Part shown: positions 1,804 through 29,249 of the stretch, piece by piece
How positions within the stretch are numbered: position 1 is the stretch's first letter
Layout of the letters: every line of letters starts with the position of its first letter
Assembly (NCBI GenBank): GCA_964344235.1
Contig: CAYFMJ010000001.1
Span: 64,001 to 128,000, forward strand
Length of the DNA: 64,000 nt
Direction: 5' to 3'
Source of the DNA: an uncultured Methanosarcinales archaeon
Lineage (GTDB): Archaea; Nanobdellota; Nanobdellia; Woesearchaeales; GW2011-AR9
Program-made: the position numbers and the translations under genes
Notes under the pieces: generated by a model
Told to the model about the DNA's origin: nothing
Seen by the model: only the letters and a program-made list of their open reading frames with translations
The model's database searches: none

Positions 1804-1835
1804 CTGCCAGTGGTTGTCTAGTGGGGAGTGGCTAG
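1804..1835 (-). promoter_or_regulatory. Conserved upstream element (core CCACTAGACAACCAC, 1810-1824), 9 nt upstream of TATA box TTAAATAA (1793-1800)
   Basis: 26/31 nt identical to 26944-26974; core recurs upstream of hef, gyrA and pcn. Confidence 0.75.
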
Positions 1836-1859
1836 TTTTTTGTTTATTATTGCCGGAAA

Positions 1860-1867
1860 TTATATAA
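1860..1867 (+). promoter_or_regulatory. TATA box of tRNA-Cys
   Basis: TTATATAA about 25-30 nt upstream of tRNA 5' end, preceded by purine-rich GGAAA (BRE-like). Confidence 0.6.
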
Positions 1868-1892
1868 AGGGACTTCTGCGAGAAATCTTTAA

Positions 1893-2024
1893 GGGTCAGT
1901 GGCCAAGTGGCTAAGACTAGTCTAGATTCTAGACTAGTAGTAAGCGGCCCCCTGCAGAGGGGCAGATCGAGGGAAGTACTTAGATTCTAAGTGCTCTCGA
2001 ATTCGAGTCCCTCCTGGCCCTCCA
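1893..2024 (+). tRNA. tRNA-Cys(GCA) with two introns (1916-1943 at 23/24; 1974-2001 at 53/54)
   Basis: Acceptor GGGTCAG/CTGGCCC, U73 discriminator, encoded CCA, anticodon arm GCCCC-CTGCAGA-GGGGC, T arm GAGGG-TTCGAGT-CCCTC. Each intron forms a 4-bp central helix with two 3-nt bulges. The spliced product is 76 nt. Confidence 0.92.
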
Positions 2025-2073
2025 TTTTCTAAATGTATTTAAACTGAAACCATTTGAAGTGTATTAAGAGAAA

Positions 2074-2484
2074 ATGAACAACAAAATTAAACTTGCCGGA
2101 TGTGTAATTCTAAAAGAAGATGCTATCCTTCTGCAACATAGAACAAAAAGAAATTGGTACGAATTACCAGGAGGAAAACTGGATGAAAACGAATCGCCAG
2201 AACAAACAGCAGTGAGAGAGCTTAAGGAAGAATTATGTTGTGATGTCGAGATTATTGAACAACTGGGAGTAAAAGACTTCGTGGAAGATGGTTTTACAAT
2301 GACTTATGTTTGGTTTCTTGCAAGAATTAAGGAAAATCAAGAGGTAAAAATTGGTGAACCAACTAAAATAAGCCATATTCATTATATCCCAATTAAAGAT
2401 CTCGAGTCTCATAACCTTTCACCCAACATGGAACGTCTATTAGAGGAGATTAAGCAAAAGAGAGTAAAATTATTTAAACCATAA
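2074..2484 (+). CDS. NUDIX hydrolase
   Basis: Nudix box GGKLDENESPEQTAVRELKEE. Confidence 0.9.
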   Translation: MNNKIKLAGCVILKEDAILLQHRTKRNWYELPGGKLDENESPEQTAVRELKEELCCDVEIIEQLGVKDFVEDGFTMTYVWFLARIKENQEVKIGEPTKISHIHYIPIKDLESHNLSPNMERLLEEIKQKRVKLFKP

Positions 2485-2499
2485 TTATAATCTCAGTAC

Positions 2500-3588
2500 A
2501 TGAATAAAAAAGCAATCTCCTCTTTAGAGCTAGCGGCACTTGTACAAGAATTGCAGTTTATTGTGAAAGGAAAGGTTTCGCAGATTTATCATCAGGAGAA
2601 GAAGGAGTTACTGCTACAATTACATGCACCAGGGCAGGGTAAACAATTGTTAAAGATAATTCCAGGGAAATTGTTGTGTTTAACGGACAGGAAAAAAGCA
2701 GGAAGTTTACGGCCAACAGGGTTTTGTATGCAGTTGCGGAAATATATCAATAATGCATTTATCAAAAGTATTCAGCAAAAAGATTCAGAACGAATTGTTG
2801 TATTTGAGTTGGAGAAAAAGGAGAAGTATTATTTGATTGTTGAATTGTTTTCCAAGGGGAATATTGTATTAGTTGATGGCAACTATAAGATTATTGCAAC
2901 GTTAACATGGCAGAAGTGGAAAGATAGGACTGTAAAGCCGGGAGAAGAATATCTCTTTCCAGAATCGCGAGTTAATTGGAAAACAATTAGTGAACCTATG
3001 TTTAAATCGTTGGTGGAAAAGAGTGAGAAGAAGAATCTGGCTACAGCTCTGGCAACAGAATTGGGCTTAGGTGGAGTGTATGCGGAGGATTTATGTTTAC
3101 GAGTGGGTGTTGATAAGAATATTGTGCCCACGGATGTGACGGCAGCACAGGCTGGGTTGTTGTTTCAGGGACTGCAAGAGATGTTAGTGTTGTTAGAAAA
3201 CCCAAAGGGGTGGATTTACGAGGAACAGGTAACGCCGTTTCCTCTTGCTGAAGAAAAAGATGAAAGGAGAACAAAGACGTATAATGAGGCGATCAATACA
3301 CTCAATCCGTTTCAAAAGAAGTCGCCGTATGAGCAAAAGATCGCTGCAATTGAGAAGACTATTGCGACACAGCAGGAAGCGATTGAGAGTTTGAAACTGA
3401 AGATTGAAGAGAATGGTAGGAAAGGAGAAAGGGTTTATGAGGAGTATGCTAACTTGCAGAAGTTGTTAGATATCGTGAAAGAGTTGCGGAAAACAGCGAC
3501 GTGGGAAGAGGTTAAAGGAGAGTTAACAAAAGAGAAGAAAATCAGTTCTGTTAATCTGAAGAAGAAAACTGTAATGATTGAGTTATGA
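2500..3588 (+). CDS. NFACT/RqcH (Rqc2/FbpA)-family protein, N-terminal domain and coiled coil only
   Basis: Typical NFACT-N motifs (F.MQLRKYI, ERIVVF, LIVELFSKGNIVLVD) and HhH-like LGLGGVYAED; ends before the RNA-binding domain. Confidence 0.8.
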   Translation: MNKKAISSLELAALVQELQFIVKGKVSQIYHQEKKELLLQLHAPGQGKQLLKIIPGKLLCLTDRKKAGSLRPTGFCMQLRKYINNAFIKSIQQKDSERIVVFELEKKEKYYLIVELFSKGNIVLVDGNYKIIATLTWQKWKDRTVKPGEEYLFPESRVNWKTISEPMFKSLVEKSEKKNLATALATELGLGGVYAEDLCLRVGVDKNIVPTDVTAAQAGLLFQGLQEMLVLLENPKGWIYEEQVTPFPLAEEKDERRTKTYNEAINTLNPFQKKSPYEQKIAAIEKTIATQQEAIESLKLKIEENGRKGERVYEEYANLQKLLDIVKELRKTATWEEVKGELTKEKKISSVNLKKKTVMIEL

Positions 3589-4284
3589 TTTTTGCATGTA
3601 ATATGCTCTTTTTTCTGAAGAGAATTTTTCTATCGCGTACCGTAGCATTGTGCGGGGCATTGTTTTATAGTGTTGTTGGAGGAACTGTTCTTCAAGAGGT
3701 TGATCTCTCTTTCCAATCTCACGTAACATCCAGCCAACTGCTTTATGGATGAGATCGTGTTTATCGTTGACTAAGATTTCGGCAATTTCTAGAGAATCTG
3801 TAAATTGGTTTTTGTGAATAAACCAGAATGTTGCTAAAATGGAGATACGGCGGTCCCAGAGGTTATCTGATTGAGCGAGGGCGTGGAGAAGTGACTTATC
3901 TTTGTCTAACAAATATCTGCCAATAACTTTATGTGCAGTTACATCAATTAAATCCCAGTTATTAGCGTATTGTTTGTGGTTAATGTAGAAATCAAATATT
4001 TCTTTTTGTTCTTCTGGTGTCGCTTTTTCAAATTTATATGTAAGAATGATGAATGAGGTAAGCCTTACTTCGTGGTATTTGCTTTTGATTGATTTCGAAA
4101 GCTCTGCAAGAGAAATGTTCACATATTTCTTAGCAATCTTTCGTTGTTCAGGGACTGTGATTCCGAGAAATACATCACCTTCACCATATTGCCCAGGGCC
4201 TGTTTTGAAGAATCGTTGTAGTACTTTTGCTTTCTCTGGGTTTTTGCGTTGCTGCAGTTCTGTGAGGAGTTGAGAGAGCATCAT
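3583..4284 (-). CDS. alkD: DNA alkylation repair protein (AlkD family)
   Basis: FFKTGPGQYGEGDVFLG, NNWDLID, KAVGWMLRE, MPRTMLRYAIE. Confidence 0.9.
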   Translation of the reverse strand: MMLSQLLTELQQRKNPEKAKVLQRFFKTGPGQYGEGDVFLGITVPEQRKIAKKYVNISLAELSKSIKSKYHEVRLTSFIILTYKFEKATPEEQKEIFDFYINHKQYANNWDLIDVTAHKVIGRYLLDKDKSLLHALAQSDNLWDRRISILATFWFIHKNQFTDSLEIAEILVNDKHDLIHKAVGWMLREIGKRDQPLEEQFLQQHYKTMPRTMLRYAIEKFSSEKRAYYMQKS

Positions 4285-5042
4285 TTCTTGTTTTTGGTAA
4301 AGCCTTCAAACGATCTGAGAACCTCCAATGGAACTGCAAAAATAATGGTGTTGCTTTGATCACTTGAAATATCATTAATACTTTGAAGAGTTCGTAGGTG
4401 AAGTGCCCCCGGTGCTTCTGCTAGCATTTCTGCGGCTTTGGCCATGTTTGTTGCAGCAACTTTCTCCCCATCTGCTTTGATGATTACTGCTCTTTTTTCT
4501 CTCTCGGACTCTGCCTCTTTAGCCATGATCCGTTTCATATCATTCGGTAATTCAATGTGTTTTAAGTCAACAGAATCAACAATAATTCCCCACGGGTCGG
4601 TTGCTTTGTCAACAAGCTGTTGGATCCTTTTTGATAATTGATCTCTTTTATTTAATAAGTCATCAAGTGGAACTTCCCCCACCACATCACGCATTGTTGT
4701 TTGTGATAATTGTGAAGTCGCAAAAAAGAAATCCTCCACTTCCAAGATGGCTTTCATTGCATCACCAATTTTAAAGTACAGTACTGCATTAACACGGACA
4801 GAAACGTTATCTTTTGTAATACAATCCTGATCTGGAACGTCAACAGCTTTAACCCGTAAGTCAACGCGCTGCCAGGATTGAATAATGGGAATGACTAACC
4901 GCAATCCTGGTTTTAGAATACCAGAGTATCTTCCCAGAGTGAATTTAACTCCCCGCTGGTATTCTTTAACAATTTTTAATCCAGATAAAACGAAAAAAAC
5001 AACGACTATGAGGGGGATATGTAGAAATGTAATGCTAACCAT
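4281..5042 (-). CDS. SPFH/band-7 (stomatin-like) membrane protein
   Basis: N-terminal TM helix, ITKDNVSVRVNAV, AESEREKRAVII, ALHLRTLQ. Start moved to ATG 5042. Confidence 0.9.
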   Translation of the reverse strand: MVSITFLHIPLIVVVFFVLSGLKIVKEYQRGVKFTLGRYSGILKPGLRLVIPIIQSWQRVDLRVKAVDVPDQDCITKDNVSVRVNAVLYFKIGDAMKAILEVEDFFFATSQLSQTTMRDVVGEVPLDDLLNKRDQLSKRIQQLVDKATDPWGIIVDSVDLKHIELPNDMKRIMAKEAESEREKRAVIIKADGEKVAATNMAKAAEMLAEAPGALHLRTLQSINDISSDQSNTIIFAVPLEVLRSFEGFTKNKK

Positions 5043-5149
5043 TCTTTTCACGTGGCAAATGAGGTATTTTAATGTTTCGATGATTGAGACCACAACCCAC
5101 TCGACAACTGCGAGTAGAGAATATAAATGAGTAATTCTGTGGGGAATCT

Positions 5150-5500
5150 ATGCAAGAGGTGTTAGCAAAATTGGAGCGGTCGAGGTTTCGCAGAAAGTTT
5201 CGTTTGTCTGAGAACGATATTGAGTATATTCAGCGAAAAACGGTTGAAGTGATGTATGATCATGCAGAGGGTTTTATCCGAGAGCGGTTACGGGAGTACC
5301 CTAGAAATGATGGAAAACAAACGCCGTGGAAAGGACATCCTGTGTTTATTGCGCAACATGCCACAGCCACTTGTTGCAGAGGATGCATGGCGAAGTGGCA
5401 TAACATTCCAAAGAATGTTGTGATGGATGAAGAACAAATTGCGTATGTAAGGGATATTATTATGACCTGGATGTGTGGGCAAATAGTAGAACATGATTGA
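5150..5500 (+). CDS. DUF4186-family protein
   Basis: SRFRRKFRL, NDGKQTPWKGHPVFIAQHATATCCRGC..KWH. Confidence 0.85.
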   Translation: MQEVLAKLERSRFRRKFRLSENDIEYIQRKTVEVMYDHAEGFIRERLREYPRNDGKQTPWKGHPVFIAQHATATCCRGCMAKWHNIPKNVVMDEEQIAYVRDIIMTWMCGQIVEHD

Positions 5501-6221
5501 GCAATCATTTGTATTTTTAGAGAGAATTGGGTTCAGGAAAGAGAGAGGTATTTGGCAACAGGGAATTAGGACATGGCAGGATTTCTTACTGTGTGAGAAC
5601 ATCCGAGGGGTTTCTGGGAAGAGAAAAGGCCATTATAATCGGAAGATACAGGAAGCGCAGCAGGCGTTGTGGCGGGGAGATTATTCTTATTTTATTGGAA
5701 AGTTGCCTCAAAAAGAGATGTGGCGGTTGTATCCGTTTGTTAAAGAAGAGTGTTGTTTTGTAGATATTGAGATTGATGGAAATGGAAGAATCGTGGTTGT
5801 GGGTGTTTCAAATTATTTTCAAACGAATTTCTTTGTGAGAGGGGTTAATTTGCAGAAAGAAATGGTTGAGAGGGAGCTGGGGAAGTATAAGGCAATAATT
5901 ACATTTAATGGCGGAGCGTTTGATGTGCCAAAACTGTGGAAGGAGTTAGGCGTTGACGTTGGGATGATACATATTGACTTAAAGCCGCTGTGTGTGAATA
6001 TGGAAATGAAAGGTGGTTTGAAAGAGGTAGAGAGACAGTTGCAGTTACGGAGACCATTTCATTTATATGGGAATCCTATTGATCTATGGAAAGCGTTTCA
6101 CGCTTCTGGTGATAGAGAATATTTGGAGTTGCTTCTCGATTATAATAGAGAGGATTGTGAAAATTTGAAGAACATTATGGAATTTGTCTATAAGGGGATG
6201 GTAAAAAATTATATAAACTGA
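5493..6221 (+). CDS. RNase H-like (YprB/RNase_H_2) exonuclease-domain protein
   Basis: DIE, TFNG..FDVP, HIDL, GGLKEVE, LLDYNREDC motifs. Confidence 0.8.
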   Translation: MIEQSFVFLERIGFRKERGIWQQGIRTWQDFLLCENIRGVSGKRKGHYNRKIQEAQQALWRGDYSYFIGKLPQKEMWRLYPFVKEECCFVDIEIDGNGRIVVVGVSNYFQTNFFVRGVNLQKEMVERELGKYKAIITFNGGAFDVPKLWKELGVDVGMIHIDLKPLCVNMEMKGGLKEVERQLQLRRPFHLYGNPIDLWKAFHASGDREYLELLLDYNREDCENLKNIMEFVYKGMVKNYIN

Positions 6222-6238
6222 TGATGTCTCTTTAGGTT

Positions 6239-7360
6239 ATGCCACAAAAAGTAACGCCTTGGGAAGTGCAAGGAAATATTGATTATAACAAGTTGATAAA
6301 AGAGTTTGGAGTTTCCAAGGTTGATAAAGCGTTGATGAAGAGAATTGAAAAGAAAGCCGGGTCACTTCATCATTTACTGCGTAGAGGAATTTTTTTTGCA
6401 CATAGAGATTTGAAGTTTGTTTTAGATGAGTATGATAAAGGTAACAAGTTCTTTTTGTATACCGGGAGAGCACCCTCCGGGCCAGTTCATTTGGGCCATC
6501 TTGTCCCGTGGATGTTTACAAAGTGGTTACAGGATGCGTTTAATGTAGAGTTGTATTTCCAATTTCCAGATGAAGAAAAGTTTCTGTTCAAGAAAGGGTT
6601 GAGCTGGGAGGATAGCCAGAAATATTTACATGAAAATATGTTAGATGTGATCGCACTTGGTTTTGACCCGAAGAAAACGCATTTTATTATTGACACAAAA
6701 CATGCGAACTTAATGTATCCTGAAGCGTTGAAAGTGGCGAAGGGAATAACATTCTCCACCGTCAAAGCGGCATTTGGGTTAAAGAATGAGAGTAATCTTG
6801 GACAAATTTTTTACACTGCTATGCAAGCTGTTCCTGCATTCTTACCGAGTGTGTTGAAGAAGAAGAAAATCCCGTGTTTAATTCCGCATGCCATTGACCA
6901 AGACCCACATTTTAGAGTGTCACGAGACGTGATTCCAAAGTTAGGGTATTACAAACCGGCATCAATTCAATGTCGTTTCTTGCCAGGGTTAGCTGGAATG
7001 GAAACTGACGGCAAGATGTCTTCCTCTATTGAGCACACCGCGATTTATACAACAGATGATGCAAAGACTGTTAAGAAGAAAATTAACAAATATGCGTTTT
7101 CTGGTGGTGGAGTAACGGTAGAGGAACATCGTAAAAAAGGCGGTAAACCGGAGATTGATGTAGCGTATCAATGGCTAACGTTTTTTGAAGAAGATGATAA
7201 GAAGCTAGAGAGAATCTACCGTGATTACAAATCAGGGAAATTGTTGAGTGGAGAATTGAAAGCAATTTTGATTGAGAAGTTGAATGCTTTCTTAGCGGAA
7301 CATCAAAAGAAACGGAAAAAAGCTGCAGCGAAAATTGACAAATTTATTCTGAAGGGGTAA
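6239..7360 (+). CDS. trpS: Tryptophanyl-tRNA synthetase (archaeal/eukaryal type)
   Basis: VTPWEV, LYTGRAPS..HLGH, AIDQDPHFR, KMSSS. Confidence 0.95.
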   Translation: MPQKVTPWEVQGNIDYNKLIKEFGVSKVDKALMKRIEKKAGSLHHLLRRGIFFAHRDLKFVLDEYDKGNKFFLYTGRAPSGPVHLGHLVPWMFTKWLQDAFNVELYFQFPDEEKFLFKKGLSWEDSQKYLHENMLDVIALGFDPKKTHFIIDTKHANLMYPEALKVAKGITFSTVKAAFGLKNESNLGQIFYTAMQAVPAFLPSVLKKKKIPCLIPHAIDQDPHFRVSRDVIPKLGYYKPASIQCRFLPGLAGMETDGKMSSSIEHTAIYTTDDAKTVKKKINKYAFSGGGVTVEEHRKKGGKPEIDVAYQWLTFFEEDDKKLERIYRDYKSGKLLSGELKAILIEKLNAFLAEHQKKRKKAAAKIDKFILKG

Positions 7361-7414
7361 GCAAACCTTTAAAAACATGCGAAATATTCTTTCCGTAAAG
7401 AGGTGATAGAGTTT

Positions 7415-7645
7415 ATGGCTCGTAGAAAAGGCACGAAGCGTTCTCCACGAAAACGGCCACCAAAGTGGCATGCTGTTCCATTAAAAGGAAGTTTCATGGT
7501 GTTGGCAATTGTTGGGTTCTTTGTGAGTGCGTATATGGTATACCCCGCAAATAAGAGTTACGGTGTTGCGTTTCTCTTAGTATTTACGGCGATGTTTATT
7601 GCTTCCCTGATTAGTATGACAAAAGCACCAGTGATTGGACAATAA
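7415..7645 (+). CDS. Small two-TM membrane protein with basic N-terminus
   Basis: GAGGTGA SD before ATG 7415; two hydrophobic helices. Confidence 0.7.
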   Translation: MARRKGTKRSPRKRPPKWHAVPLKGSFMVLAIVGFFVSAYMVYPANKSYGVAFLLVFTAMFIASLISMTKAPVIGQ

Positions 7646-7646
7646 A

Positions 7647-8087
7647 ATGGCAGAGAAACAATTACAGTGGACATTCCCGCAGAGGACTGTTAATTTTTTA
7701 CGGTTGGAGTTACTTGCAGTAGGCATTTTAGCAGTGTTAATTTTCATTGTAACATGGGTACAAGGAGAGAGTGCATTTTTCTCACTGATTATGGGCCTGC
7801 TGTTTGTTGGGATCTATTTTTTAGTATCGTTTGTTATTCAGCGGATCAGATCTGCAGAAGAGCAGTATAAGGCTAGTGGGACGCATCTTCAGGTAACAAG
7901 AAAAACTCGTTTTTCAACAAAGAAAGAGAAAGTGCATTTGAAGAAGATTCATCACCATAAATTAGATAGAGCATTTCTTGGTGGGTATGCATTAAGTCAT
8001 AAAGGCAAACACTTACTGTTTTTTAACAATACCAATGAGTTAGAGAAGTTTGATAAGCATGTTAAGAAACATGGAAAAAAGAAATAA
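7647..8087 (+). CDS. Two-TM membrane protein with soluble C-terminal domain
   Basis: ATG immediately after the upstream stop; two hydrophobic segments. Confidence 0.7.
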   Translation: MAEKQLQWTFPQRTVNFLRLELLAVGILAVLIFIVTWVQGESAFFSLIMGLLFVGIYFLVSFVIQRIRSAEEQYKASGTHLQVTRKTRFSTKKEKVHLKKIHHHKLDRAFLGGYALSHKGKHLLFFNNTNELEKFDKHVKKHGKKK

Positions 8088-8387: not shown

Positions 8388-8418
8388 AATAGTTTGAGAG
8401 AAGGATTCAATATAAACG

Positions 8419-8679: not shown

Positions 8680-8734
8680 ACTGCAATATTGGTATAAAGC
8701 TTAAATATTACTACCGCACAAATTTGCAGTAAGC

Positions 8735-8863: not shown

Positions 8864-8894
8864 TCTTTTTATAGTGCGGCGCGATTAAAGGAAT

Positions 8895-9688: not shown

Positions 9689-10075
9689 ATGGGAGTATGC
9701 ACAAATTGTGTTGATAAGTATGGAGACTGGTTCTATTTCGTGTTTCGTTTATTAATCGGTCTACTGTTTTTCATGCATGGTTATGGAAAATTGTTTGGTG
9801 GAGAAGCTACTGGATTAATTTGGTGGGCAGGATTAATTGAATTGCTCGTAGGATTGGGAGTGTTCTTTGGGTTCTTTACCAGGTTAGCAGCGTTTGGCGG
9901 TGCGATTGTAATGCTAGTTGGGTATTTTATGATGCACTTTCCAATGGGCTGGAATCCGTTGCTTAATGAAGGACAAGCGGCAGTGTTGTTCTTTGCAGCG
10001 TTCTTAGTATTGATGCAGAGAGGAGCAGGTAAGTGGGCATTAGAAAGAGCTCTATTGAAGAAAGAAGTGTTCTAA
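9689..10075 (+). CDS. DoxX-family membrane protein
   Basis: FRLLIGLLFFMHGYGKL, GFFTRLAA; GAGGTGA SD before ATG 9689. Confidence 0.85.
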   Translation: MGVCTNCVDKYGDWFYFVFRLLIGLLFFMHGYGKLFGGEATGLIWWAGLIELLVGLGVFFGFFTRLAAFGGAIVMLVGYFMMHFPMGWNPLLNEGQAAVLFFAAFLVLMQRGAGKWALERALLKKEVF

Positions 10076-12261
10076 CTTCTTTCCTTTTTTTTATATTTTT
10101 TTTCCATTATTGAATTTATTTTTTCCGCAGTTTTTTGGCCGATGCCTTCTACCTCTGTAAGGTCTTCTGCAGTGAGGAGTGCTTTTATTGAGCCATACTG
10201 TTCCAGCAATTTCCGAGCTGTAGCAACGCCAATTGTTGGAAGAGAAGAAACGATAAATTCTAGCTGCTCATTGGTTGTTCTTGGTTTGTTAACGTGATAT
10301 GAAAAATCGCGTGATTTGTCTTGTTCACGTTTGGCCATAACGGCTAGCAGCGCTGCTGTGTCTCTTGCGTTTTTTGTGTATAAAACAGGGACGTGGAAGT
10401 CTAATGTTATAGATGAAAGCATGCCACGGATAGCGTTAGCGTGAACTTTTCGTACAGAATAAATATCTTCCTCACCTTCAATAATAACAACGGACTTTTC
10501 GAAATTATTTTTTAGGTGGCGGACTTGTTCGAGTAATCTTCCGTCAATTATGGAGGAAACAAAGTCGGGAACTTTCTTTAGTTCGACGCCTACTTTTCCA
10601 GAGACAACATAATCGGCAGATTCAAGTTGTGCCGTTTTGACGGAAACTCCGAGGTCAATTAATTCTTTGACAATGCGATTATTTTTTTCACGATGATCTG
10701 CTACTACTGCAACAACTTGCTCTTTTGGAATAAATGTTTGTAGAGAGGTGTTCTTTGTGGAGGGGGTGAGAGAGAATTCTTTTTTGAGTTTCTCCAAATT
10801 ACGGTACATTCGCTTTTCTTTATGATGAGAACTCCACCTATATCCTTCGTCGCGGGTTTTTTCTGTGACGAGGATGGTAACAGCACCCTCTTCTAATCGT
10901 CCTGTGCGGCCTCTCCTCTGAATAGCACGAATTGCTGAGGGAACTGGTTCGTAGAACATTACTTTATCTACTTTAGGGATGTCAAGGCCTTCCTCCGCTA
11001 CACTAGTCGCAACGAGAACATTAAATTTGTTGTTACGGAATTGATCTAAGATTTCTTTTTGTTGTTTTTGTGAAAACCCTATGCCATTTTTTTTTGTTTG
11101 ACCGACAAAGATGTGTGAGGGAATGGGGTGGAGTGTTTTAATGATTTGCTCAGCTGAGTCACGGAATTGTGTGAAGATAATGATTTTTGCATTTGGATCT
11201 GCAGTGATACGTTCCGAGGTGAGTTCTTTAAGTTTGAGAAGTTTAGGGTGTTGAATGTTTTTTTCTATAAGTTCCTCTGTCAGGTAGGCAGCTGCTTTGA
11301 AATTTTCGTCAAGTACAAGGTTTCTGACCGCTTTTACTTTCGAGGTCGTCGCTTCCTGCTTTAATTTGTTGCAATAGGAATGGAGAGGGTTGATGCCCTG
11401 TGTTTCCAATAATTCTATAGCGTGATCAACTTTCAGTGCTTCCGCAACTAATGAAACACTTTTGAGAATCTCAAAATCTTTGATGCCAGAAGATATCTTT
11501 TTCATCAATTCTCCCTGTAACCCAAGCATCTGCGTTTTTGTTAGATCAGAAGAGGAACAATAGCCATAGCCCATTGCCTGTAGAAGTTTTGATTTTCTAC
11601 AATCTTGCAGATATTTTTGAATTTTTTTGAACTCGTCGGGGAGAGGAACTTTTACCCATTGTTTCTTGATTGTTTGGACGTACGGTTTTACATCTGGGTC
11701 TTGTTCCGTTCGTACCTCAACTTTCTCGATATGAAGATTCGTGCAAACTTCTCTAATTTTTTCCATATCACTGCCAGGAGATGCGGTGAGAGCGAGGATG
11801 CGTGCGTACTTTGAACGCTTTTCGTATTGGTCAGCAATCCAGACATAAGAGTATTCGCCCGTTGCATGATGCGCTTCGTCAACTATTAGCAAAGAGGTTT
11901 CCGTTAAGTTGATGCGTTTATTGATTATGTCGTTTTCCAGCCCTTGGGGTGTTGAAACAATTATTTGGGAGGATTTCCAGAGGTCTGCACGTTTTTCTGG
12001 TTTTACAGAGCCGGTGAATAGGGAAATGTTTTCGTTCTTGAGATGGGTTTTGAGTGTCTCTACGTGTTGTTCACATAGCGGTTTTGTCGGGGCAAGCATC
12101 AGAATTTTTGATTGGGGGTATTGGTGTAGTCTTTGTGCGATGAGAAGGAAGGCAATGGCAGTTTTCCCTAAGCCAGTAGGAAGGACAACAAGTGTGTTTT
12201 TACTGACTGCCGTACCGAGGATTGTTTGTTGATAGAGCCTCGGGGTGAAGTTTTGAATCAT
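10072..12261 (-). CDS. hef: Hef helicase-nuclease (SF2 helicase + ERCC4/XPF nuclease + HhH)
   Basis: PRLYQ, LPTGLGKT, DEAH, TASPG, SVAEEGLDIP, QRRGRTGR, ERCC4-like VELKKVPDF. Start set at ATG 12261, about 25 nt from the TATA box. Confidence 0.93.
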   Translation of the reverse strand: MIQNFTPRLYQQTILGTAVSKNTLVVLPTGLGKTAIAFLLIAQRLHQYPQSKILMLAPTKPLCEQHVETLKTHLKNENISLFTGSVKPEKRADLWKSSQIIVSTPQGLENDIINKRINLTETSLLIVDEAHHATGEYSYVWIADQYEKRSKYARILALTASPGSDMEKIREVCTNLHIEKVEVRTEQDPDVKPYVQTIKKQWVKVPLPDEFKKIQKYLQDCRKSKLLQAMGYGYCSSSDLTKTQMLGLQGELMKKISSGIKDFEILKSVSLVAEALKVDHAIELLETQGINPLHSYCNKLKQEATTSKVKAVRNLVLDENFKAAAYLTEELIEKNIQHPKLLKLKELTSERITADPNAKIIIFTQFRDSAEQIIKTLHPIPSHIFVGQTKKNGIGFSQKQQKEILDQFRNNKFNVLVATSVAEEGLDIPKVDKVMFYEPVPSAIRAIQRRGRTGRLEEGAVTILVTEKTRDEGYRWSSHHKEKRMYRNLEKLKKEFSLTPSTKNTSLQTFIPKEQVVAVVADHREKNNRIVKELIDLGVSVKTAQLESADYVVSGKVGVELKKVPDFVSSIIDGRLLEQVRHLKNNFEKSVVIIEGEEDIYSVRKVHANAIRGMLSSITLDFHVPVLYTKNARDTAALLAVMAKREQDKSRDFSYHVNKPRTTNEQLEFIVSSLPTIGVATARKLLEQYGSIKALLTAEDLTEVEGIGQKTAEKINSIMEKKYKKKERS

Positions 12262-12298
12262 AGAAGTTCGAGGAGGAGTGGTTATATAAGGGTTATGT

Positions 12299-12322
12299 GT
12301 GGTTGTCGAGTGGGGGAGTGGG
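12299..12322 (-). promoter_or_regulatory. Conserved motif upstream of hef (core CCACTCGACAACCAC, 12299-12313), 9 nt from TATA TTATATAA (12282-12289)
   Basis: One mismatch to the core at 1810-1824, with identical spacing to TATA. Confidence 0.75.
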
Positions 12323-12355
12323 ATGTTTTTTATAGAAGTGGTGTTTTGAGAATAC

Positions 12356-12874
12356 ATGAAAACGATTATCTTAGTATGTGGGGTGCCAGGCGTTGGGAAA
12401 ACTTTTGTGAGTCGGAAGCTTGTTGGTGCTGTTGAGAATTGTTATTTATTGGATTCAGATGAATTTTGGACAATCCATGGTAGCAAGTACAATACAAATG
12501 ATGAGGAAAGTACGAGGGAAGCGTTCCGGATTAGTTATATCACACTGAAAACAAATGTTACGAAAGAATTGCTAGAGAAGTATGACGTTGTTATTGTTGA
12601 TGGTATTTTCACACGAAAAAGCGATAGGAAAATATTTTATGATTTTGCAGAAAGAGAAGGTTTTGCTGTGAAAATTATTCGGGTTGTGTGTTCCCCAGAG
12701 GTTGTTGAAGAAAGAATTAGAAAGCATACAGATCACGTTTGCGATCCAGAGGACAGGATGAAAGGGTTCCATCGCGCATCGAAGAAGTGGGAGGAGATTG
12801 AGCGAGAACACGTCGTTATTGATTCTAGTAAAGAAATTGATATCGTGAAGGTGGTAGAGCAATTAGGATTGTAA
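12356..12874 (+). CDS. P-loop kinase-like protein (AAA_33 type)
   Basis: Walker A GVPGVGKT, VIVDG, lid R..R. Confidence 0.8.
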   Translation: MKTIILVCGVPGVGKTFVSRKLVGAVENCYLLDSDEFWTIHGSKYNTNDEESTREAFRISYITLKTNVTKELLEKYDVVIVDGIFTRKSDRKIFYDFAEREGFAVKIIRVVCSPEVVEERIRKHTDHVCDPEDRMKGFHRASKKWEEIEREHVVIDSSKEIDIVKVVEQLGL

Positions 12875-20408: not shown

Positions 20409-20496
20409 GTTTTACTGTAAAATTAAGCTTTTTGAGCTTGCAATTTATCGTCGATAAAAACGTGTTTTTTAGAGATTTTTTGTGTTTATAAAGCTT

Positions 20497-20511
20497 GTGG
20501 TTGTGGAGTGG
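20497..20511 (-). promoter_or_regulatory. Conserved motif upstream of gyrA (CCACTCCACAACCAC), 5 nt from TATA TTATAAAC
   Basis: One mismatch to the hef core. Confidence 0.6.
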
Positions 20512-23876: not shown

Positions 23877-23982
23877 ATGATTTTTGTGAGAAGAGTATTA
23901 AAAAAAATATAGCCGATATTTATTTCACTCCTCCCGAATACTAAACAAACTTTTTAAACGTTCTTCGACTAGAAGGACTACT

Positions 23983-24480
23983 ATGGGATGGTTTAGCAAG
24001 AAGAAGAAAATACCGAAGGTGCCCTTGCCGGCAGGCCATCCAGTTGATGAGAATGCATTACGATTTCCTTCTATGCCACATTCGGAGAGAGTTATTGAGC
24101 CAGATCATGTGAAGCAAGCTGTTGGTGTTGGAAATGATAAGTCATTGCCACCTCTACCAGAGTATCCTAAGATGTCTCCGCCAGCAGCTCCTCGACGAAA
24201 GGTAGCAAAGCGACAACCTACGGCTCCGGCGATGGCGCCACCCATACCAAGAGTAGCGGGCCACCCATTATATGCAAAAGTGGATGTGTACCAGAGAGTA
24301 TTGGGGGAGTTAGATAGTTTACGGACAGATATCTCTCACTTGTCAACTGCAAATAACCATTTAGCAAAATCAGAGTTTAATGAGGAAAAGAATTTTGAAA
24401 AATTGAAACGAAACGTACGCAACATGCACGATAGATTATTGCTTGTTGACAAAGTATTATTTAAAACGCAAGGTGAATAA
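23983..24480 (+). CDS. Pro-rich protein with C-terminal coiled-coil module
   Basis: PLYAKVDVY..VL..L module is paralogous to the next gene. Confidence 0.7.
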   Translation: MGWFSKKKKIPKVPLPAGHPVDENALRFPSMPHSERVIEPDHVKQAVGVGNDKSLPPLPEYPKMSPPAAPRRKVAKRQPTAPAMAPPIPRVAGHPLYAKVDVYQRVLGELDSLRTDISHLSTANNHLAKSEFNEEKNFEKLKRNVRNMHDRLLLVDKVLFKTQGE

Positions 24481-24481
24481 A

Positions 24482-24709
24482 ATGGAACGAATGCCAGTTT
24501 TTGTAAAAATTGATGAATATAACGACGTCCTACATTTGTTAGGGTTAATTCGAAGGAAACTTGATGATGCTAAAGAGACTTTGGCTAAAATCCACGACTT
24601 AAAGAATGAAGAAGATCATCAACTAGAGACGTGGCATAACACGTTGGAAGAAGTCGAGAAAAAAGTTGATTTTATTAATCACTCATTGAGTGAACCAGAA
24701 AAGTTCTAA
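24482..24709 (+). CDS. Small coiled-coil protein (PVFVKIDEY family)
   Basis: ATG immediately after upstream stop; heptad pattern. Confidence 0.75.
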   Translation: MERMPVFVKIDEYNDVLHLLGLIRRKLDDAKETLAKIHDLKNEEDHQLETWHNTLEEVEKKVDFINHSLSEPEKF

Positions 24710-24710
24710 G

Positions 24711-25220
24711 ATGGCTGCTAAGAAAAAGAAAAGTAGTACGAAAAAGAAGAGTATACCTAGAAAGAGAACTACTGCTAAGAAAAAAACAGTCAAAGCAGTA
24801 AAAGAGCCAGAATATATGGTGCAAGTATCTGATCCGAAAATGATTCGGAAGGATTTGCTCGAGTCATTACGAGAAGTTATTATCTTTATGCAGGGGTATG
24901 AAAAGTTTCGAAGTATGCAACAAGAGAAGGTTGCCTTGTTTACTGCGTTGAAAACAGAGGTTAAAGAGTTACATGCATTAAATGAGAAGTTGCGGAAGAA
25001 ACTGCCGAAAGGGAAGTTACAACCAGTTACAGCGGAGCAACAACAGAAAAAGAATGTTGAGGAAGCTGTACAGGAGATGCCAGAGGAAGTTCCTGAAGAA
25101 CATCATGAAGAGCCGGTAGCGGCGCCACCTGCTCCTGAACCAGCAGCACCGCCGAGTGGTTTAGCTGCGTTAGAGTCGCAATTGCAGGATATTGAGCAGC
25201 AGTTGCAGAATATTCGGTAA
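24711..25220 (+). CDS. Coiled-coil protein with Lys-rich N-terminus
   Basis: ATG immediately after upstream stop; basic tail then helical core. Confidence 0.7.
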   Translation: MAAKKKKSSTKKKSIPRKRTTAKKKTVKAVKEPEYMVQVSDPKMIRKDLLESLREVIIFMQGYEKFRSMQQEKVALFTALKTEVKELHALNEKLRKKLPKGKLQPVTAEQQQKKNVEEAVQEMPEEVPEEHHEEPVAAPPAPEPAAPPSGLAALESQLQDIEQQLQNIR

Positions 25221-25271
25221 ATTATATTCTTTATTTACGATTTTATTATATTGTAAAAGTGTTTTGATAGT

Positions 25272-25739
25272 ATGCACGATGCAACACTCTGTATTCCCCT
25301 CGAAGAGGAGCACATTCGTTTAGCAATGAAAAAGCGAGGTTTTGGCGCAGGCCGGTATAATGGATATGGAGGAAAACCAGAGGCCGGGGAATCTATTGAA
25401 GATGCTGCAGTGAGAGAGTTCTATGAAGAGTCTGGTGTAAGAGTTAAGAAAGAGGATTTAGTAAAGGTAGGAGAGGTAGAATTTTACTTTCCCCATAAAC
25501 CAAACTGGGATCAAAAAGTTCATATCTATACCGTTCGTCAATGGGAGGGGGATTTTGTAGAGACGGAAGAGATGAGGCCAGGAAGATTTCATCATTCGGA
25601 AATTCCATATTCCCAAATGTGGCCGGACGATGAGTTTTGGTTACCACATGTTCTTGCTGGGAAGTATGTGATGGGGAGTATTGTATTTGGAGAAGGAGAT
25701 ACGATTCTTGAGAATCGGTTGGAGATAAGGGAGAGTTAA
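25272..25739 (+). CDS. NUDIX hydrolase, MTH1/8-oxo-dGTPase-like
   Basis: KKRGFGAG..NGYGGKPEAGESIEDAAVREFYEESG, EEMRP, MWPDD.FWLP. Confidence 0.88.
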   Translation: MHDATLCIPLEEEHIRLAMKKRGFGAGRYNGYGGKPEAGESIEDAAVREFYEESGVRVKKEDLVKVGEVEFYFPHKPNWDQKVHIYTVRQWEGDFVETEEMRPGRFHHSEIPYSQMWPDDEFWLPHVLAGKYVMGSIVFGEGDTILENRLEIRES

Positions 25740-26590
25740 GCACTATACGCATCCATTACTTGTAATACTACTTGAGGATTTGTTGTTGGAAGAGAGTGTG
25801 GTGCGCCTGGAACAACATCGATATCAAGTTCACCCACTACTAATCCCCTAACGATTGGTTCTGCTTTTGTAGGCACAACCATTGCATCTTTGCTACCATA
25901 AATCATGTGGGTTGGAACGTAAAAACCACCTAATTGCTCAGAAACATCAAAGCCAATAGCGACCCTACCCATAACATTATTTGCTCTGATTCTATGCCAC
26001 GGTTGATCTACTATTGTTTTCAGAACTGCCAATTCTGATGCGCCTTCCAATTGTGACTGGTCTGGATATGATCTTTTTGTTCCTCTTAGCAAATGTCCAA
26101 GACCGGTTATTGCAAACCCTGGCCATTCAAGCACATAACGACCAACTTTGTCAAAAAAGTGATACAGAGCAACATTTGGTGCGGTGTCTTTAAAGTTAGG
26201 TGCAGTGCAGATACCCGTTAGTTTTGAAGCATTTTTGGTACGAGAAATATAATCAACAGCCGGCATAAAACCGAAACTTGTTGCAACAAATTCTGGCCTC
26301 TCTATACCCTTACGAGCTAAAATCATTTCAAGGTCTTGAGAGTGTCTTTCTAACTCATAAAATTCTGGTTTCGTGGGAGCATCAGAATAACCAAAGCCAC
26401 GTGGGTCAAACGTTAGAGTTGGGTGACCCCTTTCATTCAGGCCCGCTTCTAGTCGTTCAAGGGAACTATGGTTCATGGAAGATCCAGGACACAATACTAC
26501 CATTTTCTTGTTCATGCCACTGCCAGAATTTATCCAATAAAATACTTCTACTCCGTCCTCAGCAACAATTTTTTGATTAGGTTGTTTCAT
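25736..26590 (-). CDS. Alpha/beta-hydrolase fold protein
   Basis: DPRGFGYSD, elbow ATSFG, GSKDAMV, GAPH. Start set to ATG 26590. Confidence 0.8.
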   Translation of the reverse strand: MKQPNQKIVAEDGVEVFYWINSGSGMNKKMVVLCPGSSMNHSSLERLEAGLNERGHPTLTFDPRGFGYSDAPTKPEFYELERHSQDLEMILARKGIERPEFVATSFGFMPAVDYISRTKNASKLTGICTAPNFKDTAPNVALYHFFDKVGRYVLEWPGFAITGLGHLLRGTKRSYPDQSQLEGASELAVLKTIVDQPWHRIRANNVMGRVAIGFDVSEQLGGFYVPTHMIYGSKDAMVVPTKAEPIVRGLVVGELDIDVVPGAPHSLPTTNPQVVLQVMDAYSA

Positions 26591-26701
26591 AGAGTGATTT
26601 AGGAGGTGGTTTTTATAAGATTTGTGTTTGTAATCATTGTGGAGTGGTTTCAATTTTATTTTAGTTACTTTTATAAAATAATCATAGTTGAAATGTTCTA
26701 T

Positions 26702-26894
26702 GCGGACGTGCCGGAGAACTCACTTCGTTCGTGCTCCAACAAACGAAGTTTGTCCGGAGTGGTCAAACGGGACGGTTCGTTTGGCATTACGGTGCCAAGT
26801 GAGTCCATACTCAAATGCTAAAACCATTTCCTGATTTAGCGTAGAGCTATCCGTTGGTTTAGTACCTACGCAGGTTCGAACCCTGCCGTCCGCA
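26702..26894 (+). tRNA. tRNA-Leu(CAA) with three introns (26717-26759 at 15/16; 26776-26808 at 30/31; 26816-26848 at 37/38)
   Basis: Acceptor GCGGACG/CGTCCGC, A73, long variable arm, T arm GCAGG-TTCGAAC-CCTGC. The spliced 84-nt product has anticodon arm ACGGA-CTCAAAA-TCCGT. BHB central helices are CCGG/CCGG, GGAC/GTCC and CTC/GAG (relaxed). Confidence 0.88.
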
Positions 26895-26943
26895 CTTTAT
26901 TATTGTATTCTTTCTTCTTAATTCAACTTTTAAATTGTAATTT

Positions 26944-26974
26944 TAGCCACTGGTCACTGGACAACCACTAGCAG
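26944..26974 (+). promoter_or_regulatory. Conserved upstream element (core TCACTGGACAACCAC, 26954-26968), 9 nt from TATA TTATATAC
   Basis: 26/31 identity with 1804-1834 (reverse complement). Confidence 0.75.
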
Positions 26975-27019
26975 AGTTTATATACAAAATCACTTACGAA
27001 GTTTCACAGTACCAAGATT

Positions 27020-27775
27020 ATGAATACAAAAATAAATCCGGAGGTTGCAGAGATCCTAGGAGCCTTTATAGGAGATGGGTGGCTTGAAAGCTCATTAGGT
27101 GCGATCTACATTACGGGTGATAAAACTGAGGATAAAGAGTATTATGATGCATTTTTAGGCCCTTTGTTTAGTGAACACTTTTCTCCCGTCACACCACAGC
27201 AATTCCCGTACTGGAATGTATATGGAATTGGTTCTTCTAAGAAAATAGCAATTGAGAAGTGCTTGAGTCTCGGTTTTCAACCAGGAAGTAAAGCACTCGT
27301 TGCAAAAATGCCAGACTTTATTATGAAAACACAAAATGTTGAGGTTAAGAAAGCTATTCTAAGGGGTATCTTTGACGCTGATGGATGTATATGGTTTGAT
27401 AGATCAAGAGCCAAGACATCTAACGAATGGAAGAGAAAATATCATTATATTCCAATTATAGAAATTTCCTCTTGTTCACAAAATTTATTACAACAAATGA
27501 AAGAAATCCTAACTACTTTTGGAATAGAATCACTTATTATACTAAAGAGTAAAGCGGGAAGAAAATTCAATAGGAATCGACATGATTCTTTCTCTTTAAA
27601 AATAAGGAAAATTGACCATGTTAAAAAATGGTTCAGTATTATTGGTTCTAGTAATTCAAGACACCAAACGAGGTATGCTGTTTGGAAAAAATTCGGCTTT
27701 CTTCCGCCAAGGACAAATATTAACCAAAGAAAGCAAATTTTAGCGGGGAAATTAGATCCTAAGAGTTTCTATTAA
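27020..27775 (+). CDS. Free-standing double-motif LAGLIDADG endonuclease
   Basis: VAEILGAFIGDGW and ILRGIFDADGC. Confidence 0.87.
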   Translation: MNTKINPEVAEILGAFIGDGWLESSLGAIYITGDKTEDKEYYDAFLGPLFSEHFSPVTPQQFPYWNVYGIGSSKKIAIEKCLSLGFQPGSKALVAKMPDFIMKTQNVEVKKAILRGIFDADGCIWFDRSRAKTSNEWKRKYHYIPIIEISSCSQNLLQQMKEILTTFGIESLIILKSKAGRKFNRNRHDSFSLKIRKIDHVKKWFSIIGSSNSRHQTRYAVWKKFGFLPPRTNINQRKQILAGKLDPKSFY

Positions 27776-27816
27776 GTTTCACATAGCTTTTTAAACACCC
27801 AAAGTATTCTTTGTGG

Positions 27817-29151
27817 ATGCCAATTGAAGTATGCAGCATCGGTGGATTCTCGAAAACAGAAGGGAATTCCGTTGCGATTAAAGTTGATGATGAAGTTGTT
27901 ATTCTTGATATGGGTTTAGGGATGGAGTCGTACATCAAGTATCAGGAAGACCGCGAAGATGTCAAGAGCGAGAAGGATTACAAAGATCTTGTAAAAGTTG
28001 GTGCGGTTCCTAATTATAGTTTCATTGCTGATTGGAAAAGCATGGTTAAGGCGATCGTGCCAAGCCATGGTCACCTCGACCACGTAGGGGCGATTCCGTT
28101 TGGTGCGCATTTATTCCCGACTGCCCCCGTGGTGTCAACACCGTATAGTATTGAGGTGCTGAAAAGTATTTTATGGGATGAGCACATTAAGTTACGGAAT
28201 GAATTAGTAACGATTCAATTAAATGGTTTGTATAAAGTGTCTGACAAGATTACATTAGAGTTCATTAATGTGACACATTCTATTCCACACACGGCAATAA
28301 TCTGCGTGCATACCCCATATGGCAAGGTGTTATATGCTAATGATTACAAGTTTGATAGACAACCAGTGATTGGAAAGAAGCCAAACTTTGCACGGTTGAA
28401 AGAGTTAGGAGATGAAGGAGTTGCGTTACTTATTGTGAACTGTTTATATGCGCACGCGCAAAAGAAAACCCCCTCTGAATCAGTTGCACGACAAATGTTG
28501 AAAGATGTGGTGTTGGGAGTAGAGACGGAAGGAAAAGCGATGATTGTGACAACGTTTAGTAGTCATTTAGCAAGGCTAAAAAGTATCATCGAAATGGGGA
28601 GGAAACTAGATCGAAAAATAGTGTTTATTGGTAGGTCGCTGATGAAGTATGTGAAAGCGGCTGAAAGAATTAATTTGGTTTCGTTTACCAATCAAGTAAA
28701 GATGATGAGGCATCGGGATAAAATTGAGCAAACATTAAGGCAAGTACAAAAGAATAAAGGGAAATATCTTATTGTCTGTACGGGCCACCAAGGGGAACCG
28801 CGAGCGGTGTTATCACGAATAGCTCGAGGGGAGCTGGACTTCAAGTTGAGTCATGGAGATGTTATAATATTTAGTTGTCAAGTTATTCCCGTTGAAGTCA
28901 GTATCAAAAATCGTGAAAGATTGGAAAAGAGTTTACGCAATTATAATGTAAGAATCTTCAGAGATGTCCACGTTTCCGGCCATGGGGCACTGGAAGATCA
29001 TCGTGATTTATTGGAATTAGTAAAGCCAAAGGAAATTATGCCGATTCACGCCGAGAACGAGAAAGCGAAGATGCTTGCTGATTTCGCAGCGAAGTTGGGG
29101 TATAAGAAAACACATATCATGCAAGATGGTGGGAGAATAGTTGTCAAGTGA
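27817..29151 (+). CDS. rnj: Ribonuclease J (beta-CASP metallo-beta-lactamase)
   Basis: SHGHLDHVGAIP, THSIP, TTFSSH..R, TGHQGEP, HVSGHG. Confidence 0.9.
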   Translation: MPIEVCSIGGFSKTEGNSVAIKVDDEVVILDMGLGMESYIKYQEDREDVKSEKDYKDLVKVGAVPNYSFIADWKSMVKAIVPSHGHLDHVGAIPFGAHLFPTAPVVSTPYSIEVLKSILWDEHIKLRNELVTIQLNGLYKVSDKITLEFINVTHSIPHTAIICVHTPYGKVLYANDYKFDRQPVIGKKPNFARLKELGDEGVALLIVNCLYAHAQKKTPSESVARQMLKDVVLGVETEGKAMIVTTFSSHLARLKSIIEMGRKLDRKIVFIGRSLMKYVKAAERINLVSFTNQVKMMRHRDKIEQTLRQVQKNKGKYLIVCTGHQGEPRAVLSRIARGELDFKLSHGDVIIFSCQVIPVEVSIKNRERLEKSLRNYNVRIFRDVHVSGHGALEDHRDLLELVKPKEIMPIHAENEKAKMLADFAAKLGYKKTHIMQDGGRIVVK

Positions 29152-29185
29152 TTTATCACCTTTCGGTGCCGATTTCTCTATGAAA

Positions 29186-29200
29186 CTACTGGACAACAAC
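29186..29200 (+). promoter_or_regulatory. Conserved motif upstream of pcn (CTACTGGACAACAAC), 5 nt from TATA TTATAAAT
   Basis: Shares ACTGGACAAC exactly with 26956-26965. Confidence 0.6.
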
Positions 29201-29249
29201 AAATCTTATAAATGGTTTTGACTCGGAGAGAGAGTAGAGGGTGTGAATC

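Follow-up and report, generated by a model that had tools for sequence, protein, structure and literature searches.

The window (the whole 64,000-nt stretch of DNA that was analysed) holds hef, a DUF4186 gene and two complete LAGLIDADG genes, each preceded by a full copy of a promoter module, together with the 3' end of a third LAGLIDADG gene whose module lies before the window start. Sites resembling the module core lie before gyrA, pcn and an alpha/beta hydrolase gene (Table 1). The likely start of LAGLIDADG gene 1 is the ATG at 1738, which is preceded by an AGGTGA ribosome-binding site. The module before the DUF4186 gene, the fourth full module of the window, had been overlooked in the original prediction.

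Table 1. Modules, associated genes and look-alike sites (window coordinates unless prefixed C1)
Feature	Position	Strand	Evidence
Module of the third LAGLIDADG gene	C1:63443-63474 (526-557 nt before window start)		matrix 37.5
Third LAGLIDADG gene, 3' end (gene C1:63538-64233)	1..233	+	LAGLIDADG_3 match at C1:63904-64182
LAGLIDADG gene 1, free-standing, double-motif LAGLIDADG_3 endonuclease	986..1774	-	Pfam LAGLIDADG_3, E 9.7e-9; acidic residues in both motifs
Full module of LAGLIDADG gene 1 (distal CCAC box, core CCACTAGACAAC, proximal CACTGGCAG, TATA)	1790..1833	-	matrix 44.5 at 1802-1833; TATA directly after
Full module before DUF4186 gene (core CCACTCGACAACTGC, GAGTAG, TATA)	5088..5131	+	matrix 39.8 at 5088-5119
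DUF4186 gene driven by the 5088 module	5150..5500	+	Pfam PF13811, E 4e-44
hef (SF2 helicase + ERCC4 nuclease + HhH2)	10072..12261	-	Pfam DEAD, Helicase_C, ERCC4, HHH_5
Full hef module, degenerate proximal box ACATAACCC	12279..12322	-	matrix 28.4 at 12291-12322; same element at hef orthologues
gyrA look-alike 15-mer, non-member	20497..20511	-	matrix <8
Partial copy before alpha/beta hydrolase, non-member	26637..26650	-	18 nt to TATA; distal box, proximal box and matrix score all lacking
Full module of LAGLIDADG gene 2	26945..26988	+	matrix 37.8 at 26945-26976
LAGLIDADG gene 2, free-standing LAGLIDADG_3 endonuclease	27020..27775	+	Pfam
pcn look-alike 15-mer, doubtful member; lies in a distinct conserved promoter element of PCNA genes	29186..29200	+	matrix <8

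The 15-nt motif and the longer module

The original prediction had described five copies of a 15-nt motif, and this observation was confirmed in part. The pattern YYACTNSACAACMAC had exactly five matches in the window, at the positions and on the strands claimed; each faced its gene, and the spacer to TTAWAWA was 9 nt at hef and both LAGLIDADG genes and 5 nt at gyrA and pcn. The shuffle expectation for the pattern (0.01 in the window) is a circular figure, because the pattern was written from the same five sites. The sites at hef and both LAGLIDADG genes proved to be one element, while those at gyrA and pcn were look-alikes. The gyrA site has CAC instead of GAC, the pcn site keeps GAC but has CTACT for CCACT, and both lie 4 nt nearer to TATA than the module register and are devoid of distal and proximal boxes. 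The partial copy before the hydrolase gene was dropped, given its wrong spacing and missing matrix score.

At hef and the LAGLIDADG genes the 15-mer forms the core of CCACnnC-CCACTnGACAAC-CACnGGTAG, a longer element. Read 5' to 3', the module (about 45 nt) runs from a distal CCAC(T/A)(C/A)C box through the core CCACTnGACAAC and a proximal box, which occupies the BRE position, is lineage-specific and reads CACnGGTAG in this family, to a TATA box; the site is non-palindromic and built of direct repeats. Distal CCAC and proximal boxes were found at all four window modules (the proximal box of hef being degenerate), and the invariant GAC of the core CCACTnGACAA was present at the hef site, both LAGLIDADG sites (one with TCACT) and the 5088 site. 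The definition of the module rests on 62 sites in 9 genomes, over which the information content dropped to zero on both flanks and thus gave sharp bounds. Conservation continued gap-free to 3 nt before TATA, so that the element includes the BRE position.

A promoter element in rigid TATA register, conserved at repair and recombination genes across genera and the order

The 1.19-Mb genome was scanned with a 32-nt matrix from which TATA was excluded. Twenty-five sites scored above 16, and 23 of these above 27; the maximum in the reversed genome, which served as the null, was 14. The genome has 18 copies of CACTNGACAAC, 17 of which had about 20 more conserved bases and a TATA box in common. A strict TATA pattern was present at 23 of the 25, with CCACT starting 23-24 nt before the TATA heptamer in all 23 (the four window modules included), and the remaining two read TTATAAG or TTATATT at an unchanged offset. 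An earlier caveat about strand skew does not apply, because the sites (15 on the + strand, 10 on the - strand) always follow the orientation of the gene. The TATA boxes of these promoters were near consensus, and their BRE scores were low (median -0.20 versus 1.78 in 476 other TATA promoters; Mann-Whitney p = 8e-6).

The 25 promoters drive a small-protein/radA operon, hef, lhr, radC, a gene for an HRDC protein, the DUF4186 gene, two tyrosine recombinase genes, two micro-ORFs and all free-standing LAGLIDADG genes. Members without an obvious repair role are DUF4186, the two micro-ORFs and a 195-aa protein of no known kind. The best-scoring site (51.6) precedes the gene for an 88-aa protein and radA. 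The predicted structure of this RadA partner (pLDDT 86) has four strands followed by a helix; its best Foldseek matches were to Pur-alpha (E 0.2), and VIA-align gave Z values of at most 4.6 (3.3 for a PC4 homologue).

LAGLIDADG genes make up 13 of the 25 module-bearing members. The module was carried by all ten free-standing LAGLIDADG_3 matches and by neither of the two matches within long, intein-like reading frames. No module-linked LAGLIDADG gene was found to reside in an intron or intein; these genes are free-standing with a promoter of their own. The ten aligned paralogues all have D or E as the catalytic acid in both motifs. Paralogue proteins are only 21-32% mutually identical, with nearly identical promoters. 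LAGLIDADG gene 2 has its best relative (55% identical) in one genome only, the others being at most 36% identical; PCNA, by comparison, is 67-80% identical within the same family. The distribution of the LAGLIDADG genes among relatives is patchy and compatible with mobility. From these features (module always present, catalytic acids kept, patchy distribution) the free-standing LAGLIDADG genes appear to be variable selfish genes on a host repair promoter, and sharing it would have the endonucleases expressed alongside the recombination machinery that homing requires. Since they account for so many of the members, the copy number of the module could be due in part to a spreading promoter-plus-gene cassette and not to site-by-site selection.

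Across eight genomes of the same family the element was kept at the orthologous hef, radA-operon, lhr and recombinase genes, and it was found elsewhere at uvrB and polB. Five further genomes (G017, G013, G002, G018 and G014) had it at hef and three further genomes at the radA operon; lhr, uvrB, polB, Cas4, an RNase-H-like nuclease gene and seven recombinase genes of relatives also carried it. The core outnumbered its control in many genomes of the same family, with counts of 9/0 in G017, 8/0 in G013 and 7/0 in G004, and in another family (10/2 in G027). Throughout the order, the core followed by 10-16 nt and TATA was present in 31 of 151 genomes sampled, against one control match. The proximal box differs between families, and conservation is highest upstream of the BRE.

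The interpretation first given, a DNA-metabolism regulon with a promoter motif, was partly supported. What stood is a promoter-linked element common to the radA operon, hef, lhr, radC, the HRDC gene, the Xer-like recombinases and the free-standing LAGLIDADG genes and kept at orthologues in other genera; the two-spacing model, gyrA, pcn, the hydrolase and the resemblance to ORB elements did not.

Putative regulator and rival explanations

We regard it as likely that the module is the binding site of one putative dedicated, sequence-specific regulator which would co-control a DNA-repair and recombination regulon, a possible SOS-like DNA-damage response in archaea. The regulon would span the radA operon, hef, lhr, radC, HRDC and Xer-like recombinase genes, and in relatives also uvrB, polB, Cas4 and the RNase-H-like nuclease; the inducing signal may be DNA damage or replication stress. 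The protein that would bind the module is probably an activator, because the module sits upstream of a weak BRE and recruitment of TFB/TBP would therefore need help. A TATA box near -27 would put the core at roughly -43 to -62, in the archaeal activator zone.

Because the element extends into the BRE position, a protein bound there could equally well shut out TFB. The same regulon would then have the opposite sign, the module being the operator of a LexA-like repressor whose footprint over the BRE-position box blocks TFB until damage removes it, and the near-consensus TATA boxes would allow strong promoters once freed. We consider this unlikely, though not negligible: conservation is strongest upstream of the BRE, the proximal box varies by family, and the weak BRE suits promoters that need recruitment. 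Most characterised archaeal repressors overlap TATA/BRE or the start site, which also speaks against repression here. The earlier model, in which one factor with two spacings would activate the nuclease promoters (9-nt class) and modulate those of gyrA and pcn (5-nt class) as a replication/repair switch, is improbable. It draws on the presence of ACAAC at the 5-nt-class spacing in 6 of the 489 TATA promoters of this genome, three of which are those of gyrA, pcn and mre11, and on the PCNA promoter of G004, which reads CCACACCACCACTAGACAAC at that spacing. However, the genes downstream of the other two 5-nt-class promoters of this genome encode a membrane protein and a secreted protein, the 3' half of the pattern overlaps the generic A/C-rich BRE of the genome, and a broad 5-nt-spacing class was rejected because the pattern turned up just 5 times in 19 relatives, twice at PCNA. 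The CCACT part was not conserved in any relative's gyrA promoter examined. The pcn copy belongs to a PCNA-specific element, ACTACTnnnnAACAAyAAATyTTATAAA, of which it is a local variant; among the fifteen family PCNA promoters compared, most read ACTACTTTAYAACAA without the invariant GAC of the regulon core, which was present in G004 and G000 only.

In Sulfolobales, a DNA-damage-responsive element (5'-ANTTTC-3') is bound by Orc1-2, which activates transcription (PMC6061795). With this precedent, the module might be ORB-like and be recognised by the only Orc1/Cdc6 of the genome, which would double as a repair regulator. Of the four ORB elements at the neighbouring origin, one (TTTCCACAGGAAAT) indeed has CCACWGGA in common with the core. 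The reading is very improbable nonetheless. The other three ORBs differ (CCATGTGA or CCATAAGA), the palindrome is broken because the N of CCACTNG is free, and the resemblance first noted was not borne out by the core matrix, whose best score in the origin region (-0.9) was equalled by 61% of random windows; the genome has a single Cdc6_C gene and so no spare Orc1/Cdc6 paralogue. A non-regulatory role, in which the module marks a conserved terminus, or a recombination site, of a mobile cassette (a homing-endonuclease unit or Xer-type site) spread through the genome, would account for the thirteen copies before variable LAGLIDADG genes and for those at recombinase genes. It too is very improbable in view of the occurrence of the element at orthologous single-copy housekeeping genes (hef, the radA operon and lhr) in several genera, invariably on the coding strand at 23-24 nt from TATA. 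The element also has no inverted-repeat core of the kind typical of tyrosine-recombinase sites, and its family-specific extended pattern had no exact match in viral contigs.

Several candidates were rejected. A TFB-like 232-aa protein (L081 1165-1863), considered as an alternative initiation factor, was present in only 1 of 30 relatives and adjoins an integrase fragment. A search of this genome, which is 96% complete, found no WYL-domain regulator (PF13280). HTH-LAGLIDADG proteins, considered as a WhiA-like autoregulated regulator, gave five candidates in five genomes which were 15-18% identical and not orthologous; the G009/G018 pair has standard GDG and DSDG motifs, and none of the five is marked as a conserved inactive regulator. 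An 85-aa HTH-like ORF (L007 182-439) was merely the N-terminal piece of such a protein. A palindrome in the gyrA leader was set aside as well, its second genomic copy being due to chance because it lies inside a coding region.

Relation to known systems and significance

To our knowledge, DNA-damage sensing and response in archaea outside Sulfolobales are largely unknown, and we know of nothing on gene regulation in uncultured DPANN. In the bacterial SOS response the LexA box is found at recA, uvr, small-peptide and prophage genes. The module resembles it in that one cis element joins selfish elements and small peptides to a recombinase and to excision and other repair genes; unlike the LexA box it is non-palindromic, built of direct repeats and placed upstream of TATA/BRE, with an activator more likely, and we know of no LexA in archaea. 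Archaeal upstream activator sites beside BRE/TATA include those of Ptr2 and TFB-RF1 and the GvpE UAS. The module shares their position directly upstream of the BRE, their direct repeats and their fixed TATA register, and differs in sequence, regulator and targets, none of those systems controlling repair genes.

The Orc1-2 system of Sulfolobales (PMC6061795) is similar in that a short promoter element at DNA-damage genes defines a regulon. The element is CCACTnGACAAC here and ANTTTC there, and the targets there are ups, ced and tfb3, against radA, hef, lhr, recombinases and homing endonucleases here; unlike that system, this genome has a single Orc1/Cdc6, and the matrix test gave no link to ORB. 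PafBC of mycobacteria (PMC6789036) and DriD of Caulobacter (PMC13004042) are WYL-type activators of damage regulons with upstream promoter motifs. In these systems the activator site replaces a weak core-promoter element, and the weak BRE here would be the analogue of the missing -35; those systems are, however, bacterial and sigma-factor-based, and the present genome is without a WYL-domain protein. A full-text search of the literature gave no description of the module.

A wider possibility, put forward tentatively and with more doubt than conviction, is a damage-inducible SOS-like network throughout Woesearchaeales, in which the putative activator would stand in for BRE recognition at some 10-25 promoters in each genome and into which homing endonucleases, recombinases and small peptides would be plugged. 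As a sharply delimited cis element common to radA, hef, lhr, uvrB and recombinase genes order-wide, the module provides a bait sequence for a search for the regulator. The module also supplies a list of putatively co-regulated genes, including uncharacterised small proteins and the 88-residue RadA partner. Selfish homing-endonuclease genes would be systematically adopting a host repair promoter, which would time their expression to the recombination machinery on which homing depends. If such an order-wide network exists, it would be the first archaeal DNA-damage regulon outside Sulfolobales and also the first regulatory circuit to be defined in DPANN.

A promoter module shared across the genome

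A degenerate 15-mer had been proposed as a motif common to five promoters of the window, and all five copies were matched at the positions and strands claimed (LAGLIDADG genes, 1810-1824 and 26954-26968; hef, 12299-12313; gyrA, 20497-20511; pcn, 29186-29200). Each copy lies, in gene orientation, upstream of a TTAWAWA box, with a spacer of 9 nt at hef and both LAGLIDADG genes and 5 nt at gyrA and pcn, as described. The shuffle statistic for the 15-mer was circular, the pattern having been derived from the very five sites, and the motif was therefore tested on the whole 1.19-Mb assembly, in which the window corresponds to C1:64001-128000.

Genome-wide matches of ACTNNACAAC were all listed with their sequence context. 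The sequence CACTNGACAAC occurs 18 times, and an extended architecture is common to 17 of these: a distal CCAC(T/A)(C/A)C box is followed in turn by the core CCACTnGACAAC, by a proximal CACnGGTAG box and by a TATA box. This unit of about 45 nt is referred to here as the module. A 32-nt matrix was built without the TATA box, using the reversed genome as the null. Scanning yielded 25 sites scoring more than 16 bits, of which 23 exceeded 27, against a reversed-genome maximum of 14. A strict TATA pattern begins 23-24 nt past CCACT in 23 of the 25 sites; the other two carry TTATAAG or TTATATT where the TATA box is expected. Strand composition does not account for the strands of the sites (15 on +, 10 on -), which follow gene orientation, and the earlier caveat on strand skew does not apply. 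When 62 sites from nine family genomes were pooled, information content stayed high throughout the stretch that begins with the distal box and ends with the TATA box, and fell to zero on either flank.

Within the window, shared membership of the five copies held for hef (28.4) and the LAGLIDADG genes (44.5 and 37.8) but failed for gyrA and pcn, both below 8 bits on the matrix. The partial copy proposed before the alpha/beta hydrolase gene (26637-26650) also scored below 8 bits. A fourth full module, absent from the original prediction, precedes the DUF4186 gene (5088-5119; 39.8), and a fifth sits immediately before the window start.

Genes behind the module

The top-scoring site (51.6) heads the gene of an 88-residue protein followed by radA. 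This RadA partner has 239 homologues, all in Woesearchaeota/Nanoarchaeota, and forms a conserved family without a Pfam domain; its model predicts four strands and then a helix, with weak fold matches to Pur-alpha and PC4 (predicted PC4/Pur-like topology). The module also drives hef, lhr and radC, as well as the DUF4186 gene and the genes of two tyrosine recombinases and of an HRDC/zinc-ribbon protein, and one site precedes the gene of a 195-residue unknown protein. Two micro-ORFs recall SOS-induced small peptides; the first is conserved in three relatives (G013, G017 and G018) and the second, which is followed by the gene of a 188-residue lysine-rich protein, in G017. One module has no gene behind it; about 30 nt of its leader, hairpin GGCCAAGARAGGCC included, are common with the lhr leader, and it may be a small RNA or what remains of a duplication.

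LAGLIDADG-type genes lie behind 13 sites. A genome-wide search found 10 free-standing LAGLIDADG_3 genes, all 10 with the module, and two other matches inside long (intein-like) reading frames, both without it. The paralogous proteins are just 21-32% identical while their promoters are nearly identical, and catalytic acidic residues are retained in both motifs of all 10 aligned paralogues. The second LAGLIDADG gene of the window is patchy among relatives (55% identity in one genome, 36% or less elsewhere; PCNA, compared in the same family, is 67-80% identical). In this family, then, the LAGLIDADG genes lack the conservation of housekeeping genes; they are variable and probably selfish.

On the strand opposite hef, an AAA_33/zeta-toxin-like kinase gene (window 12356-12874, +) starts just 34 nt away from the hef module, measured from the distal end of the module. 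Judging by the kinase TATA box, TTTTTATAG (about 12331-12343), the kinase transcript would be leaderless and its BRE would overlap the hef module.

Coordinates of features discussed in the text
Feature	Position	Strand	Remark
88-residue protein gene and radA	L001 230-496; radA 518-1534	+	Co-transcribed; best-scoring module
Module-driven micro-ORFs, 42 and 44 residues	L002 167-295; L003 167-301	+	
Orphan module	L009 about 1460-1500; genome C2:8140-8180	-	No gene behind
PCNA promoter element	Window 29183-29219; PCNA loci L040-L049, L128-L132		
TFB-like protein, zinc ribbon and one cyclin fold	L081 1165-1863	-	Adjoins truncated integrase
Likely replication origin	L078 2690-3225; genome C1:130551-131086		About 2.5 kb beyond window end; adjoins single orc1/cdc6

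The gyrA and pcn promoters

The second (5-nt) spacing class was not accepted, on the following results. The CCACT part is absent from the relatives' gyrA promoters examined. The 15 family PCNA promoters share an element of their own, roughly ACTACTnnnnAACAAyAAATyTTATAAA, distinct from the repair module. General promoters of the genome have an A/C-rich BRE, (C/A)(C/A)(A/G)AAAA at -9 to -3; in the 5-nt class the 15-mer overlaps this BRE with its 3' half, so that look-alikes arise more easily. Finally, ACAAC at this spacing is found at six promoters of the genome (gyrA, pcn, mre11, two unrelated genes and one more) and is rare across 19 relatives. GAC, invariant in the regulon core, occurs among the 15 PCNA promoters only in G000 and G004, and membership of pcn in the regulon is doubtful.

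The mre11 promoter (gene at C1:391051-392268, -) reads CTCCACAACAACAATCC-ATATAAA, a look-alike of the 5-nt type. The gyrA leader holds a perfect palindrome, TTTATCGTCGATAAA (window 20444-20458, gene on -), about 30-35 nt past the TATA box. Nine same-family genomes keep it in their gyrA leaders, as TTTATCG(A/T)CGATAAA or in a closely similar form, and its sole other genomic copy falls within a coding region. It is a candidate gyrA-specific operator or leader hairpin, perhaps with a role in supercoiling control.

Conservation, candidate regulators and mode of action

In same-family genomes, matches to the 11-nt core outnumbered those to a backwards control (G017, 9/0; G013, 8/0; G004, 7/0; G009, 7/2; G018, 7/1), and enrichment extended outside the family (G027, 10/2). 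Inspection of 57 core-match places in relatives with their surrounding sequence placed the module at hef (G017, G013, G002, G018, G014), the small-protein/radA operon (G017, G013, G014), lhr (G017), uvrB and polB (G009) and Cas4 (G027), as well as at seven tyrosine-recombinase genes, three RNase_H_2 nucleases, Bro-N/ORF6N proteins and many LAGLIDADG genes. Between orthologous hef promoters conservation is confined to the module, and the flanks differ. The core followed after 10-16 nt by a TATA box was found in 31 of the 151 genomes sampled from about 30 families of the order; the control gave a single match. The proximal box is lineage-dependent: GGTAG in the studied genome, CCCTCAAAA in G027 and GCGTGAG in G097 and G044. 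In G003 each of three loci (C18:4/88, C43:7288/7372, C56:36722/36806) has two core copies separated by exactly 84 nt, which suggests a repeated unit carrying both.

Several candidate regulators were considered, among them the 88-residue RadA partner, whose fold matches are weak. The 232-residue TFB-like protein was rejected as sporadic; it was found in only 1 of 30 relatives and is therefore likely to reside on a mobile element or provirus. HTH-LAGLIDADG proteins, of which five from five genomes were compared, did not qualify as a conserved orthologous regulator, and no WYL protein was found in the genome, which is 96% complete. Its one Orc1/Cdc6 lies beside a likely origin with classical ORBs, four in number (e.g. 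AGTTTCCACAGGAAATAAGGGGGT) and arranged as inverted pairs around an AT-rich stretch. The suggested resemblance of the motif to ORB elements was not upheld: the core matrix scores nothing at the origin, and CCACWGGA is common to the core and only one ORB.

No description of the module was found in full-text literature searches. The closest characterised system, the Sulfolobales Orc1-2/ANTTTC damage regulon, differs from the module regulon in motif and gene set.

With the TATA box near -27, the core is placed roughly between -43 and -62, and the BRE position is taken up by the proximal box. The main alternative to an activator is a putative repressor covering the BRE. Regulon promoters have a median BRE score of -0.20 vs 1.78 for 476 other TATA promoters (p = 8e-6). 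This weak BRE, the rigid register and the position upstream of the BRE argue for an activator; Ptr2, TFB-RF1 and GvpE are activators with which this arrangement may be compared. The module is probably an activator site, for which we infer binding, sign and signal alike, and a putative activator bound there would help to recruit TFB/TBP.
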